Of a DNA stretch of 64,000 nt, positions 12,351 to 49,841 are shown one piece after another; the stretch's first letter is position 1; each line of letters begins with the position of its first letter. The DNA is taken from NCBI RefSeq assembly GCF_006345805.1, contig NC_042999.1, forward strand, positions 8,184,001 to 8,248,000, given 5' to 3'. A program made the translations under genes and the position numbers. The notes under the pieces were generated by a model that was given only the letters and a program-made list of their open reading frames with translations, searched no databases and was not told the origin of the DNA. The stretch is from Octopus sinensis (lineage: Eukaryota).

Positions 12351-12501
12351 ATGAATGAAAAGAACATACATGCATACATACATGCTTGTGTAGATATATA
12401 CATGCACATATATATATATATATATATATACCGGAGTAAACACATAAATGTGAAACAAGGTGGAAAAAAGAGTACTCAAATACCAGTGGTAGAGTAATAT
12501 G

Positions 12502-12979
12502 CTTTATTTTAAGCAGCAGAAAATTCAACAAAATCTGTTACTCTGAGTTTCTCGTTGCCGTTCATCAGACAGTTTTTGCTAGAATGGAACTGATATATCA
12601 ATTCAATCTATACTCTTACAAACGCTACACCTTTAAAAAGAAATGGACTTGTTTGATTGGCCCTTTAGAAAAAACGGTCAATCTTCGAGCGATAAACAAA
12701 AAGGTCAAAAATATATGTATATATATATACATATATTTTTGACCTTTTTGTTTATATATAAATACATATATTTTTGACCTTTTTGTTTATCGCTCGAAGA
12801 TTGACCGTTTTTTCTAAAGGGCCAATCAAACAAGTCCATTTCTTTTTAAAGGTGTAGCGTTTGTAAGAGTATAGATTCAATTGATATATCAGTTCCATTC
12901 TAGCAAAAACTGTCTGATGAACGGCAATGAGAAACTCAGAGTAACAGATTTTGTTGAATTTTCTGCTGCTTAAAATAAA

Positions 12980-12980
<1 letters not shown>
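12502..12980. repeat. 219-bp near-perfect inverted repeat (one mismatch seen) carrying two hammerhead motifs
   Basis: Arms 12502-12720 and 12762-12980. The 41-nt spacer contains a partial extra copy of the inner end of the right arm. Confidence 0.92.
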
Positions 12981-13019
<39 letters not shown>

Positions 13020-33919: not shown

Positions 33920-33948
33920 AACACACACACACACAAACACACACACAT

Positions 33949-33995
<47 letters not shown>

Positions 33996-34272
33996 TACGA
34001 CAGGCTTCTTTCAGTTTCCGTCTACCAAATCCACTCACAAGGCATTGGTCGGCCCGGGGCTATAGCAGGAGACAATTGCCCAAGATGCCACGCAGTGGGA
34101 CTGAACCCGGAACCGTGTGGTTGGTTAGCAAGCTACTTACCACACATACACTTGGGCCCCTATTTACATATATTTTTATATATACACATACATGTGGACA
34201 CACACAAATCCACTAGTGTACTCATATATACACACAGACACACACACACTCTCATACACATATATCAACACA

Positions 34273-34314
<42 letters not shown>

Positions 34315-34910
34315 CCCATAAATGTACATATACACAAACACACATACATGCATACATACCCCCCGCCAGATACACACAGATATTGTATATCTACACTTGC
34401 ACATGCATACTTGCACACACAAATATGCTCCGTCCCAGACTGCAAAACTGAGAACAGTCCCACCCATAAAAGAAAATGGCAGGGTGGCAGGGTGGATCGA
34501 AACGACTGTTGCACAACAGAAAGATTAACATCAAATCCATGTTCTCATTACTTAAGAAATTATTATATATATCATCATTAACATCATCATCATCATCGTT
34601 GTCGTCGTTTAACATCCGCTTTCCATGCCAGCATGGGTTGGACAGTTTGAATGAGGACTGGCAAGCTAGGAGGCTGCACCAGGCTCCTGTCTGATCTGAC
34701 ATGGTTTCTACAGCTGGATGCCCTTCCTAACGCCAACCACTCTGAGAGAGTAGTGGGTGCTTTTTACATCCTTCTGGTATGGGGGCACAGGCATCAACCA
34801 TGCTCAAACGGTGCTTTTTACATGCCACCAGCACAGGGGCCAGTCAAGCAGCACACACACACACACAACACACACACACACAAACACACACACATACACA
34901 CACACACATA

Positions 34911-34957
<47 letters not shown>

Positions 34958-35236
34958 TACGACAGGCTTCTTTCAGTTTCCGTCTACCAAATCGACTCAC
35001 AAGGCATTGGTCGGCCCGGGGCTATAGCAGAAGACAATTGCCCAAGATGCCATGCAGTGGGACTGAACCCGGAACCGTGTGGTTGGTTAGCAAGCTACTT
35101 ACCACACATACACTTGGGCCCCTATTTACATATATTTTTATATATACACATACATGTGGACACACACAAATCCACTAGTGTACTCATATATACACACAGA
35201 CACACACACACACTCTCATACACATATATCAACACA

Positions 35237-35276
<40 letters not shown>

Positions 35277-35832
35277 CCCATAAATGTACATATACACAAA
35301 CACACATACATGCATACATACCCCCCGCCAGATACACACAGATATTGTATATCTACACTTGCACATGCATACTTGCACACACAAATATGCTCCGTCCCAG
35401 ACTGCAAAACTGATGCAACACAACATGCTGAGAACAGTCCCACCCATAAAAGAAAATGGCAGGGTGGCAGGGTGGATCGAAACGACTGTTGCACAACAGA
35501 AAGATTAACATCAAATCCATGTTCTCATTACTTAAGAAATTATTATATATATCATCATTAACATCATCATCATCATCGTTGTCGTCGTTTAACATCCGCT
35601 TTCCATGCCAGCATGGGTTGGACAGTTTGAATGAGGACTGGCAAGCTAGGAGGCTGCACCAGGCTCCTGTCTGATCTGACATGGTTTCTACAGCTGGATG
35701 CCCTTCCTAACGCCAACCACTCTGAGAGAGTAGTGGGTGCTTTTTACATCCTTCTGGTATGGGGGCACAGGCATCAACCATGCTCAAACGGTGCTTTTTA
35801 CATGCCACCAGCACAGGGGCCAGTCAAGCAGC
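33920..35832. repeat. ~0.96-0.98 kb tandem duplication
   Basis: 33998 aligns to 34960 and 34476 to 35456; a few substitutions plus an 18-nt indel at 35410-35427. Confidence 0.92.
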
Positions 35833-37049
35833 ACACACACACACACACACACACACATGCACCCACGCACACACGCATGCACACACACACACGCACACAC
35901 ACACACACATGTATGTATGTATTCATAGTATTGTTCTCTCTCACTATGTCGATCTCTCTGTCTGTAGTAGGCATTCATTTGTACAATTACAAGAGGTAAA
36001 ATGTTTGCTACTAGTAAAGGTCACACAAATTCTGTCTACTATGGTTTTTCATGTATTAGATATGGTAGAATAAGACATTTTGATGCAGTTTGGGCTAAAA
36101 TGATATATTTACAGATGGAGGGTAGCATAATTTTTTTACAACAGTTGCAAGAACTATATCAGGACAATTAACGCAGTAGGACAGTAACACCCCCACTATA
36201 GGATAATTCCCCCATTACAACTAACCCCCTAGGAAAATTACTCCCCCTTGGTTAATTAAACCCCCTCCTCTCCAATATATTAGAAGTTTTAAATCATCAT
36301 CTGTTGTCCTCAGAGGTAATTGTCCTGGTGGTTGGGGGTGTTATTGCCCATGGGGGTAAATGTCTCAGACCCAAACGACCATTTTGGGTACTTAGTATCT
36401 AGAGCTGTTAACCAAAAGGGGGCCAATGCTTTATTCCTTCTGTTACGGTTAAACCTCTTAAATCCATATTTTTAAGTTTCTTAAAAAGTCACAGAGTTCA
36501 TTTTAGAAACTGGCAGGTTTTTGAAATTTTAACAATTTCAAAGAATTAATAAACCATCGATTATTATTTCGTTTTTTGAAATTCTTATAATTATTTACAT
36601 AGAAGCTTCATTAAACTTTCATGTGGAAAGCACTATCAACCACAAGAAAACACTTCATATTTGAAACACTCCTTCTTTCAGCTGCTTCGGTGCTTCTTAC
36701 ATTCCATAAGTATTTCAGAAGTATTTTGTGGAAATCGATTGATCTTGTGTGGCAATGATTAATTAGCAGGTGTCTGTCTGTTTGTCTGTATGTATGTCTG
36801 TATGTATGTAAGGCAACGTTGCTGTTCATTCTTCGAAGCTTGTTAGAATAGAATCAGCCACATACCACAGTAGTCACCTGTAACCGTTGATGGAATTAAA
36901 CTACATCATTCAAGGACGACTACAGAAGACATATGAATATGCTCCAGCATGGCCGCAGTCAAATGACTGAAACAAGTAAAAGAATAAAAGAATCTCTGTG
37001 TGTATAAAATTTCATGAGCATTAAACATGTCCACCTCATGGGAGATTTG

Positions 37050-44753: not shown

Positions 44754-44922
44754 CAATTCTAGGTTACCTGTCTCATGAAGAACCATGTCTCTTATCTCTG
44801 GTTGATACAATGATATCTAATAGCGTCTGAGCTTCATTTTCGATCCTAAATGATGGAAACTTTCTAAATTCCAGTGTTTCAGTTTATTTATTTGTCTTCT
44901 TCAATTGTGTTTGATCTTCCAG

Positions 44923-45206
44923 TAACAACAAGCAGTTACCATCAGTCGTTCTTGGTATTCCACGAAGAGGGCTACATTGTCTACGAGCCAAATGACTGTG
45001 TCATCCGCAGAGATGTTGGAAAGGATTACGGCAATTTCAAGTTTATCCCTGAAAACCTTGATGCTCCACCGTCCTTATGCGAAGAAAACAAGCCGTGCAG
45101 CTGGGGCTCAGCTGTGAACATCAAAAATAAGTACATCTACATAAGCCAACCGAGACAAAGTAGAGTTGTGGTGGTTGAGATTACTCATAGATGGAACCCT
45201 GTCCAG
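44923..45206 (+). CDS. FSTL5: FSTL4/5-like exon E: start of C-terminal beta-propeller-like region
   Basis: Acceptor gatcttccag|, donor CAG|gtaggt, phase 1 to 0. (V)TTSSYHQSFLVFHEEGYIVYEPNDCVIRR...CSWGSAVNIKNKYIYISQPRQSRVVVVEI...VQ parallels vertebrate FSTL5 FYVFYEDGIKVIQPIEC...CVWASAVNVKDKFIYVAQP (recalled). Confidence 0.93.
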
Positions 45207-45256
45207 GTAGGTTGACCTGATTTAACTTTTTATTGAAATAGAAAAAATAATTTAAG

Positions 45257-45767
45257 GTAATCTTGATTTTCAGCTGAAAGTGGAGGTTGTGTTAGAACAG
45301 GAAGATACTGTATTATTTAGCCCGACAGAACCTCTCATAAGGACTTATTGTGCATAAAAGCATTCAAAATTATATTGTTGACCAATGATCCTTGTCTGCC
45401 AATGATATAATTTCAAGTGCTTCGGAGTCCCCTCGATCGGGGCTGCCCAGAGCGGGTGCCAGGCCCATTCGGAGCCGGCGGCGATCGGCGGTGTTCATCG
45501 GCCCAAGAGTCGGGTTGCTTGAGAACGCAGCCCAAAGCGGGTGGTAAGCTCCATCCAAGGCTAAATAGGGGGACGAGTCTGATAGCTGACAAGTACCGCG
45601 AGGGAAAGTTGAAAAGAACTTTGGAGAGAGAGTTCAAGAGACCGTGAAACCGCCCAGGGGTAAACGGGTAAATGGTGTCCTTACGAGAGATTCTAACATG
45701 GTAAATAAATAACAGAGTATTCTGGGACCTAGCACAACCTCCATGTAAAGCTGAACGCCAAGACTAC
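45257..45767. mobile_element. Putative MITE or fold-back element with ~90-bp degenerate inverted repeats enclosing the 28S fragment
   Basis: 45257-45344 versus the reverse complement of 45677-45767 share gta.tcttg, ttcagct, tggaggttgtg.tag, atact, agaa.ctctc and taaggac in order. Confidence 0.6.
45414..45668 (+). pseudogene. 28S (LSU) rRNA fragment, D1 to start of D2; not a functional rRNA gene
   Basis: Contains the conserved LSU stretches gagtcgggttgcttgagaacgcagcccaaagcgggtggtaagctccatccaaggctaaata and aagtaccgcgagggaaagttgaaaagaactttggagagagagttcaagag..gtgaaaccg..ggtaaacggg. GC-rich island in an AT-rich intron, with no other rDNA nearby. Confidence 0.95.
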
Positions 45768-46011
45768 ATTTTGCTGTTGATACTGTTTCTGTCACTATTA
45801 ATTATTTTTTATGATTTATGATTTGTTACTTAAATTATGTCCCAAAATTTTGAATTATTTATTCAAAGCAACAGACGTTTGGTATTAATAATTCTACATT
45901 TTAGCCAAAGTTTTAAAAAAATAATTAACTTTTTATAACTGTCGTTCAGTCTTTCTAATTCTTAATTAAAGTAATTGTAGATTTTGCAAATATTGTAGTG
46001 TTGCAAGAGAG

Positions 46012-46059
<48 letters not shown>

Positions 46060-49000
46060 GTTAATGTCTGTTTTCCATGCTGGCATCGGTTGAGTGGTTT
46101 GACCGAAAACTGGTAAGCTGGAGAGCTGCACCAGGTTCCAGTCTGATCTGGCAATGTTTCTTATTTCTTTACTACCCACAAGGGGCTAAACATAATGAGG
46201 ACAAACAAGGACAGACAAACGGATTAAGTCGATTATATCGACCCAGTGTATAACTGGTACTTATTTATTCAACCCCGAAAGGATGAAAGGCAAAGTCGAC
46301 CTTGGCAGAATTTGAGCTCAGAACGTAGCGGCAGACGAAATACGTATTTCTTTACTACCCATAAGGGGCTAAACACAGAGGGGACAAACAAGGACAGACA
46401 AACAGATTAAGTCAATTATATCGACCCCAATGCGTAACCGGTACTTATTTAATCAACCCCGAACGGATGATTGGCAAAGTTGAATTTGAACTCAGAACGT
46501 AAAGACAGACAAAATACCGCTAAGCATTTCGCCCGGCGTGTTAATGTTTCTGCAATATTTCTTCCGAATACCAGCCACTCTGAGAGTGTAGTGGGTGTTT
46601 TTTTTTATGTGCCACCAGCATGGGTGACCTGGCACTAGCACTGGCTATGACTATGGTCTCACCTGGCTTCAAAGGTCTGCACAAGCATGGTATATCGTCA
46701 AAGGTCTTGGTCACCTGTCACTGCCTCCATGAGGCGCATTGTTTGAAGGATACATTTTACTTGCCACCTGCACAGGTGCCACTCAGACAGCACTGGTATC
46801 AGCCACAATTATGATTATGCCAATAGTAAACATATGTACTGGTTATGTTTCACTTTTATCATTATAAGTCCAATCAAAATGGTGGAAAGCTGGCAGAATC
46901 GTTCGCACGCTGGGCAAAATGTTTAGTGACATTTCATTCGTCCTTACGTCTGAGTTCAATTCCTGCTGATGTCAACTTTGCTTTTCATCCTTTCAGGGTC
47001 AATGAAATAAATACCAGTCATGCACTGGGAACTACGTAATTGACTAGCCCCCTCCCCTAAAGTTTCAGCCCTTGTGCCTACTGTAGAAAGGATTATTATT
47101 ATTATCATTATTTTTATTATTATTATTATATTAAGATGGTGAAGGGCTTAGGTTAGCGAACGTTGTACTATAAGTAAATAATATTGTTTAAGGCGGCGAG
47201 CTGGCAGAAATGTTAGAACGCCTGGCAAAATGCTTACTGGTATTTCGACGGCCGCTACGTTCTGAGTTCAAATTCTGCCGAGGTCGACTTTGCCTTTCAT
47301 CCTTTTGGGGGTCGATTAAATAAGTACCAGTTATGCACTGGGGTCGATATAATCGACTTAATCCGTTTGTCTGTCCTTGTTTGTCCTCTCTGTGTTTAGC
47401 CCCTTGTGGGTAGTAAAGAAATAGGTATTTTGTGTCTTTACGTTCTGAGTTCAAAATTCCGCTGAGGTCAACTTTGCCTTTCATCCTTTCGGGGTCGATA
47501 AATTAAGTACCAGTTGAGTAATGGGGTCGATGTTATCAACATGTCTCCTTTCTCAAAATTTCAGGACTCGTGTATATAGAAGGAAGGAGTATTATTAGTT
47601 AATTGATTGAGTATTTAATTAAATAACTAATGGCTTGTCTGATTAATTACTCAGTGAATCAATCAACCAGCTGATTTGTCAAAATTCTTTCATTGCCATT
47701 CGCAAGCTCGTTAATGACATGCCCTCTCTGCTCCAGTGAGGGCATGTCATTAACGTAAGTGAGTAACCATTTAATTGGTTAAATGGTTACTCACAGAGCT
47801 GGTTACCTGGTTTCCAAAGAGTATAAATGACTGAGATCCCATCATTCCCTTTTAATGGGACCCTAGCCAGTCATAGGGTAACTCTTTTATAGCTAAATGG
47901 ACTGAGCTGGAGCAACATGAAATCCTGTGTTTTGTTGAAGAACACAACAGAGCACCTGGTCTGGGAATCTAAGGGATGAACTTGTAATCCTGGGTGCAAG
48001 ATCCTCACCCCTATGCTGTACACCTTCACAGGTTCACAATGCCTGAAAAAAAAAAACGAATGCAGAGATTGCTGGGGTGAAAGGTCCTAAAAAGGTGATG
48101 GGCTCGTCCCTTCCTCTGGACCAATCTGATGAAAAAAAAAAAATCAAAGAAAACTATCTGGATTATTTTTTACTTCGTTCTTCCCTCCTCTTAGACTTGG
48201 TCTCAGTCTAAATGCCAACAATGTTGTGTGATGTAGCAATAGTGCATGGCTTAATGGGTAGTGTATTCAGCTCACAGTCATAAGATCCCGAGTTCAATTC
48301 TTGGTGGTGCATCGTGTTGTTGAGTGGGACACTTTATTTCATGTTACTCCTGTCCCCCCACTCAGCCAGCAAAAATGAGTTGTACCTGCAATTCAGAAGG
48401 GTCACCCTTGTTACCTTTGGCATCACTGAATCTCCCTGAGAAATACGTTAAGGGCAGAAATGTTAGCACGCTGGGTGAAATGCTTAGCAGTATTTCGTCT
48501 GCCGCTACGTTCTGAGTTCAAATTCCGGCAAGGTCGATTTTGCCTTGCATCCTTTCAGGGTCGATTAAATAAGTACCAGTTATGCACTGGGGTCGATGTA
48601 ATCGACTTAATCCGTTTGTCTGTCCTTGTTTGTCCTCTCTGTGTTTAGCCCCTTGTGAGTAGTAAAGAAATAAGTATGGGTCTCTGACGAGGGCCCAGCC
48701 ACTTGAATGTCAATTTCAAAAGCAGGCTGTTCCGTTGATCAGATCAGCTGGAAACCATCTCATCATAGCTGTTGTGGCAAGAGTCACAACACCCCTCTGC
48801 AAGAATAGACTTGACTGAACGACTATAAATAGTAGCTGTCTGAGTGAGAGACAGTGGGTAGAAGGCGTTAATCACAGGAAGCCGTCGGGTGTCGTTTTGG
48901 CAGTTTGTCGGAATATCATTTGTTGGTTCGATTGTTACGTTGTTGTTACCCTACTTCGTTATATGTTTTATTCGTTAAGGTGGAGAGCTGGCAGAACTGT

Positions 49001-49841
49001 TAGCATGCCGGGCGAAATGCGTAGCCGTATTTCGTCTGCCGTTACGTTCTGGGTTCAAATTCCGCCGAGGTCGACTTTGCCTTTCATCCTTTCGGGGTCG
49101 ATAAATTAAGTACCAGTTACGCACTGGGATCGATGTAATCGACTTAATCCGTTTGTCTGTCCTTGTTTGTCCCCTCTGTGTTTAGCCCCTTGTGGGTAAT
49201 AAAGAAATCGGTATTTCGTCTACCGTTACGTTATGAGTTCAAATTCTGCGGAGGTCGACTTTGCCTTTCATCCTTTCGGGGTCGATAAATTAAGTACCAG
49301 TTACGCACTAGGGTCGATGTAATCGACTCAATCCATTTGTCTGTCCTTGTTTGTCCCCTCTGTGTTTAGCTCCTTGTGGGTAGTAAAGAAATATATATAT
49401 GTTTTATTCGTTTCTGCTCTAGGCACAAGGCTGGAAATTTTAGGGGAGGGCGCCAGTCAATTAGATCGACCCAGTACGAAACCAGTACCTAGTTTATCGA
49501 TCCTGAAAGGATGAAAGGCAAAGTCGACCGTGGTGGAATGTTATATATTTCCTTATTACTACACAGTTATTGTGTAAACAAGTATTGTCTTAAATAATGG
49601 CAATAATTGGTGACGAGTAACTATGTTACAAATATAACCGAATGCTGATTAGTTTTCTGTGGTATTTTACCAACTTCAAAAACTTACAGAAATTAGATAT
49701 TTTCTTTTTCTGCAAGTAACATTTGTTTCAAATCTTTTATGGTTTCTTTAAACAATAAAGTATTTTAATTCTGATTAAGTGTTGCGTTAATTGCTTTAAT
49801 ATTTCAAATTGATTTACGCCTTAATGAATATATAATTGCAG

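Follow-up and report, generated by a model that had tools for sequence, protein, structure and literature searches.

A 28S rRNA fragment nested in an older fold-back of a candidate hammerhead repeat in an octopus intron

Closest described systems

A piece of sequence that is captured or derived from rRNA, flanked by inverted arms, is familiar from MITEs, Pack-type TIR elements, and 28S-derived SINEs. The stretch of Octopus sinensis DNA analyzed here (64,000 nucleotides, positions 8,184,001 to 8,248,000 of contig NC_042999.1, assembly GCF_006345805.1; hereafter the window) contains a piece of 28S rRNA between two such arms, and it differs from all three kinds of element in having no comparable termini, no target site duplication (TSD), and no multiplication of its filled form.

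Two other systems come closer as far as the arms are concerned. Non-LTR retrozymes, in the available parts of their description, are ORF-less units of 150–450 bp that carry a type I hammerhead and are arranged head-to-tail (Cervera and de la Pena 2020, PMC7229834), and the 346-bp octopus unit from which both arms derive is like them in size, low GC content, hammerhead, tandem arrangement, and co-occurrence with Penelope-like elements (PLEs), insofar as these features are covered by the accessible sections of PMC7229834 and 10.64898/2026.07.22.740005. Unlike non-LTR retrozymes, the octopus family consists mostly of monomers or partial tandems of up to ~2.2 units, often forms fold-backs, bears a one-sided tail and is old and decayed, its motif being a predicted one; the window's own copies moreover lack the hammerhead, as neither reaches the ribozyme part. 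PLEs, for their part, are described in the available text of Craig et al. (PMC8557442) as forming partial tandems and as having an inverted copy, truncated at its 5' end, and a tail of 30–40 bp on one side; Frangieh et al. (PMC11167929) explain this tail by reverse transcription starting at two sites. The pseudo-LTRs of PLEs, as these two partial sources present them, share with the octopus family the 5' truncation, the partial tandems, the inverted and 5'-truncated copy that sits at the 5' end, two 3' ends lying 30–40 nt apart, AT-rich ends, a hammerhead whose stem III is palindromic, and no clear TSD. They are unlike it in that no RT/GIY-YIG ORF is attached to the unit in the octopus loci examined, where units join without an ORF between them.

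With regard to the rRNA piece, class 2 templated sequence insertions, described in human (PMC5110952, in whose main text the word "ribosomal" does not occur), resemble the window, to judge from that text, in their distant template, their size of a few hundred nucleotides, the lack of TSD and poly(A), a microdeletion, microhomology, and possibly filler sequence. Unlike the human cases, the octopus insertion is apparently common to several species labels. Comparable too are 28S retropseudogenes without a tail and 28S/LINE-1 chimeras (PMC5322556; 10.1101/2025.02.02.635956), with an internal 28S piece of similar size in the sense of the neighboring retroelement, but they have TSDs or L1 co-insertion, whereas the window has no TSD and two components whose ages differ ~7-fold. 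A LINE-made tailless retropseudogene was considered and rejected, neither a TSD nor internal priming homology being found.

The 346-bp repeat family

Searches of the genome with the arms returned 44 matches from the best 40 of 491 candidates for one arm and 21 out of 21 for the other. A core pattern gave 11 further matches. Once 5 loci corresponding to the window itself and 9 with overlap to others had been excluded from the counts, the family set comprised 41 distinct loci, to which the arm searches contributed 33 and the core pattern 8; it represents the best matches and not a random sample. The matches to the arms pile up into a single dispersed, ORF-less unit with a period of 346 bp. On its minus strand, the unit consensus carries a type I hammerhead motif with 6 pairs in stem I, 4 pairs in stem II, and a palindromic stem III; the minimum-energy fold of this consensus recovers stems I and II, and stem III not in full. 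In a scan of 16 loci, Rfam hammerhead models match at the motif site in 4, the best match being to HH9 with an E of 3.4e-4 and all of them lying below the gathering score; several copies keep the complete core and stems (the family includes L057, L058, L069, L046, and L081). The hammerhead core is conserved at 340/358, against 2781/3350 elsewhere, a contrast in which base composition is uncontrolled. Since, in the 11 fold-backs other than the window's, arms differ by 19.6% within and 21.6% between loci, most of the change is private decay that followed insertion, and for this reason, and because part of the contrast may reflect composition, we do not take core conservation as proof.

Monomers, partial tandems, and fold-backs all occur among the 41 loci. 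Continuous unit matches extend over 770 bp (L046), 660 bp (L043), 601 bp (L069), and 515 bp (L084), and all except the second span two hammerheads each. Fold-backs are found in 11 of the 41 loci, an inverted partner being absent from the other 30, and in 11/11 fold-backs, as in the window, the RNA 5' ends point inward. The RNA 3' ends are bimodal, with 18 of 63 segments ending at unit positions 328–339 and another 18 at positions 12–29, ~37 nt apart; in 7 of the 11 fold-backs, a long end (unit 327–337) is paired with a short one (15–37). On the strength of its sequence, we describe the family as a hammerhead repeat with a Penelope tail and inversion polarity, that is, as a candidate ribozyme with predicted self-cleavage.

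GIY-YIG ORFs are numerous in the genome (150 scored of 5,029 candidates). In 30 GIY-YIG loci with 1.5-kb flanks, no sequence common to these loci and the 346-bp unit was found, the score between them being 45 as compared with 43 +/- 7 for shuffled sequence, and a strict hammerhead scan returned none on the coding strand of the 30 loci. A 19-nt AC-rich likeness in three GIY-YIG loci was rejected as a link to the unit, being at chance level. As no autonomous partner appeared among these 30 loci, mobilization of the repeat by a PLE is argued from its anatomy, and its Penelope-like partner is a protein that we infer. As an observation in its own right, L085–L114 represent an abundant and young family of GIY-YIG C-terminal ORFs, with open frames of up to 883 aa and 3' regions of two kinds; within the fetched flanks, their coding strand yielded no canonical hammerhead, and these ORFs are likely Penelope-like.

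The case for linking the retrozymes of animals with Penelope elements has so far drawn on co-occurrence and phylogeny, according to the available text of 10.64898/2026.07.22.740005, in which the word "tail" is absent and "inverted" appears only in a reference. Here, the tail and the inversion polarity are seen directly in an ORF-less tandem hammerhead family, and we are somewhat inclined to regard them as direct anatomical evidence of retrozyme insertion by Penelope machinery; this makes the family a more useful result than the locus itself. We found no report of an octopus or cephalopod hammerhead or retrozyme repeat with such an anatomy, and word counts in the accessible portions of PMC13282606 and PMC7229834 gave none either; the family may be listed in Repbase or Dfam under a different name.

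The fold-back and its 28S rRNA piece

The protein P0001, which the source record names follistatin-related protein 5-like from Octopus sinensis, maps by tblastn to 7 exons across the window. The exon next to the structure, whose peptide is identical to this protein, received no name from Pfam, PDB, or Atlas. Its donor GT (45207–45208) lies 46 nt upstream of the left arm and thus indeed adjoins the structure (table 1), and the intron ends at ~49836. Farther along in the same intron, a different repeat, abundant and with a tandem period of 183 bp, occurs several times (46157–46553, 47182–47567, 48453–48677, and 48969–49405).

Table 1. Features of the FSTL5-like exon and of the adjoining fold-back (positions in the window)
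Feature	Position	Strand	Evidence
Coding exon, follistatin-related protein 5-like	44922..45206	+	Peptide 100% identical to P0001; tblastn
Left arm: copy of the 346-bp candidate hammerhead repeat, inverted and 5'-truncated	45254..45399	-	Consensus alignment
5' stub of the right-hand copy	45385..45422	+	30/38 identical to RNA-sense consensus; inverted repeat I12
Host 28S rRNA gene fragment, ~nt 194–443 of 28S	45421..45670	+	Consensus of 10 rDNA loci; Rfam
6-nt junction: diverged repeat or filler, not rDNA	45671..45676	+	Rejoined flanks vs consensus
Right arm: remainder of the right-hand copy, to the long 3' end	45677..45811	+	Consensus alignment

A first, sequence-only reading had proposed that 45257–45344 and 45677–45767 are arms aligning as reverse complements, and this stands: 65 of 91 columns pair, and the local score of 73 exceeds all 2,000 of 2,000 dinucleotide shuffles (23.4 +/- 3.6, maximum 42). 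The extent of the arms and what lies between them have to be redrawn. The right arm was first given an end at 45767 but continues for another 44 nt, to 45811, and the 67 nt taken for a non-rRNA spacer on the left are more repeat, forward to ~45399 and then reversed from ~45385 to 45422. The alignment of this reversed stub overlaps that of the left arm by ~15 nt, which places the fold-back center near 45392. Against the family consensus, the left arm shows 117 matches and 28 mismatches from unit position 25, and it ends at the short (tail-less) 3' end; the right arm shows 105 matches and 26 mismatches and ends at unit position 330, the one-sided tail at ~45771–45811 extending 41 nt beyond the end of the left arm. 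Read from these alignments, the locus is two head-to-head, 5'-truncated repeat copies with the rRNA set ~30 nt into the right half. The idea of the rRNA as cargo between two termini was rejected, the fold-back being centered near 45392 and the rRNA interrupting the right-hand copy.

The rRNA itself is the sole Rfam match in the window (RF02543, 161 bits, E 1.7e-39, plus strand), which bears out an LSU piece in the sense of the host gene; its boundaries, initially set at 45414–45668, are corrected to those of table 1 (250 nt). An own-genome rDNA search, in which the best 40 of 550 candidates were scored and 30 loci fetched, provided the references, the position within 28S being that given by Rfam on the rDNA locus L005. 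Aligned to the octopus' own 28S, the piece is 98% identical (245/250 against the majority of 10 host rDNA loci) and is host sequence, not foreign. Of its five changes, four are at CpG (p 0.006), in what looks like neutral decay as judged from the bases involved, and both of its edges are sharp and free of changes. Because it lies wholly within mature 28S, an RNA and a DNA origin are indistinguishable.

At the left junction, two nucleotides (TT) are common to repeat and rRNA, that is, microhomology. The insertion removed 8–13 nt of repeat, a size obtained by comparing the rejoined flanks with the consensus since no empty site was observed. As had been remarked from the sequence, there is no TSD: no direct repeat of at least 5 nt surrounds the rRNA, and at the element ends the search for one returned just a low-complexity 6-mer out of register. 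The rRNA junctions have no poly(A), and the 3' junction offers at most 1 nt of priming homology.

Concerning the physical reality of the locus, 4 runs of the 24 listed, from four studies and under four organism labels, were checked over 44880–45500, on the left junction side. In 4/4 runs, a low-depth contig leads from the exon or flank through the left arm to 45450; these contigs enter the rRNA by 30 letters, one short of the 31-letter bridging rule, and their stop at 45450 probably reflects a 31-mer graph breaking on entry into a high-copy repeat. No empty allele (fold-back without rRNA) appeared among the matches listed for the four runs, and the insertion is apparently common to all four labels. 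One contig (X9) differs from the assembly at 5 of 419 letters. The assembly is mismatched at 45213 in 4/4 runs and at 45294 in 2/4, differences that are possibly assembly consensus errors or alleles.

The fold-back is older than the rRNA insertion, in keeping with the initial suggestion that the better-preserved fragment arrived later (2% in the rRNA versus 28% between arms). Indeed, the rRNA has 5/250 changes (95% interval of the divergence 0.6–4.7%) as opposed to 34/169 in the copy that it interrupts (Fisher p 3e-10), while the arms differ from each other at 33/118 positions and from the consensus by 19–21%. With 2% against ~14% per arm, despite the higher CpG content of the rRNA piece (24 CpG versus 5 in the whole unit), the rRNA arrived ~7 times more recently. 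On the scale of PMC13282606, which sets a JC distance of 0.2 at 56 My and places an expansion of PLEs and LINEs at that time, we infer that the arms may be ~45–60 My old and the rRNA ~2–13 My old.

Origin and meaning of the rRNA insertion

On this basis, we consider it probable (roughly 0.7) that the locus is a single late 250-nt rDNA-derived patch in a dead retrozyme/Penelope-type fold-back of an FSTL5-like intron, with no dispersal. A Penelope-like RT/GIY-YIG protein would have copied repeat RNA into the intron, and the product would be what the anatomy displays, a 5'-truncated copy with a tail and an inverted copy without one; both arms then decayed, to ~14% each. Later, as the order of events and the junctions suggest, a break ~30 nt from the fold-back center would have been closed with a patch derived from rDNA or rRNA, presumably through end joining. 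The piece has since gained CpG-type changes without multiplying, and it would leave with the intron at splicing, likely without function. What counts against a patch is that the rRNA agrees in sense with the repeat RNA and sits near the truncation point, where a template switch would put it. Keeping the order of events, its main rival would have the rRNA reverse-transcribed in place, in trans, by a Penelope-like protein or a LINE. We find this doubtful, as there is no TSD, no poly(A), and at most 1 nt of 3' priming homology, many rDNA orphans of this genome include ITS or 5.8S, rDNA is found in 0/41 family loci (and, reciprocally, the repeat near other rDNA in 0/29 loci with 1.5-kb flanks), and the agreement in orientation amounts to a coin toss. 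A single event, in which the reverse transcriptase jumps from repeat RNA to 28S rRNA and back and the rRNA is kept young by conversion from rDNA or by selection, would account for the shared sense, the distance of ~30 nt from the truncation point, the short skip, and the microhomology at the re-entry side, and 28S/LINE-1 chimeras with a median of 269 nt, 83% of them in sense, are reported in the accessible part of 10.1101/2025.02.02.635956. It is nevertheless improbable in view of the disparity in divergence and the opposite disparity in CpG; gene conversion would moreover need end-to-end coverage, both edges being change-free, and the changes are CpG-type and not compensatory.

The main idea of the sequence-only reading was that an rDNA piece had been captured, and may be dispersed, by a TIR DNA element or MITE; it owed its appeal to arms that are significantly complementary and do belong to a dispersed family. 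These arms, however, come from the interior of a tandem-forming unit whose ends are permuted, 30/41 loci are without an inverted partner, and the two ends are unequal by ~40 nt. All three features of such an element (terminal inverted repeats, TSD, and multiple filled copies) fail. As for dispersal, each repeat–rRNA junction is single-copy in the genome at up to 3 mismatches and there are no filled copies, by which this explanation is refuted and its residual probability made negligible. Common rDNA match boundaries had given the appearance of a filled family, which was rejected because the boundaries are the limits of the query and the matches longer rDNA copies. The alternative offered alongside it, an rRNA inserted into an old palindromic MITE, was right about a later arrival in an older palindromic repeat and wrong about the MITE. 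An assembly chimera or contamination would be suggested by the high copy number of rDNA, the read check covering the left junction side only, and is hardly credible either: the best match is the host's own rDNA, from which the piece differs by five private changes, the left junction is present in 4/4 runs from four studies, and the repeat is in register on both sides.

Regarding function, the first suggestion was that the arms could loop out the rRNA beside the 5' splice site; the loop-out is predicted (~66 arm–arm pairs), but the donor is not within the helix. In these predicted folds, a role of the arm helix or of the rRNA domain in splicing or A-to-I editing finds no support. It is very unlikely that a Penelope-like enzyme re-cut one of its own old, non-autonomous hammerhead copies and wrote 28S rRNA into it in trans, with the arm helix, 46 nt from the donor, offering an rRNA domain and a long duplex that tune FSTL5-like splicing or A-to-I editing. 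The locus is best seen as a neutral nested insertion whose use is limited to serving, by its presence or absence, as a marker among closely related octopus species, and it carries a warning: long inverted arms in animal genomes may be Penelope-type fold-backs mistaken for MITE termini.

Some observations lie outside this argument. The 29 other fetched rDNA loci are either longer copies of rDNA or orphans whose ends vary. Among the orphans, L024 and L027, which are independent 28S orphans, start at the same base (position 1303 of the L005 reference), 5 nt before the first LSU position of Rfam, as expected of copies of mature 28S rRNA, and L022 contains a rearranged piece starting at 1305. The pairs L002/L006 and L020/L021, on small unplaced contigs, have identical junctions and are duplications or haplotigs; large internal deletions occur in several orphans (L020, L025, and L029). 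Elsewhere in the window, 33920–35891 is a 1-kb tandem duplication with 95% identity, and 12497–12985 is a self-complementary stretch of 489 bp.
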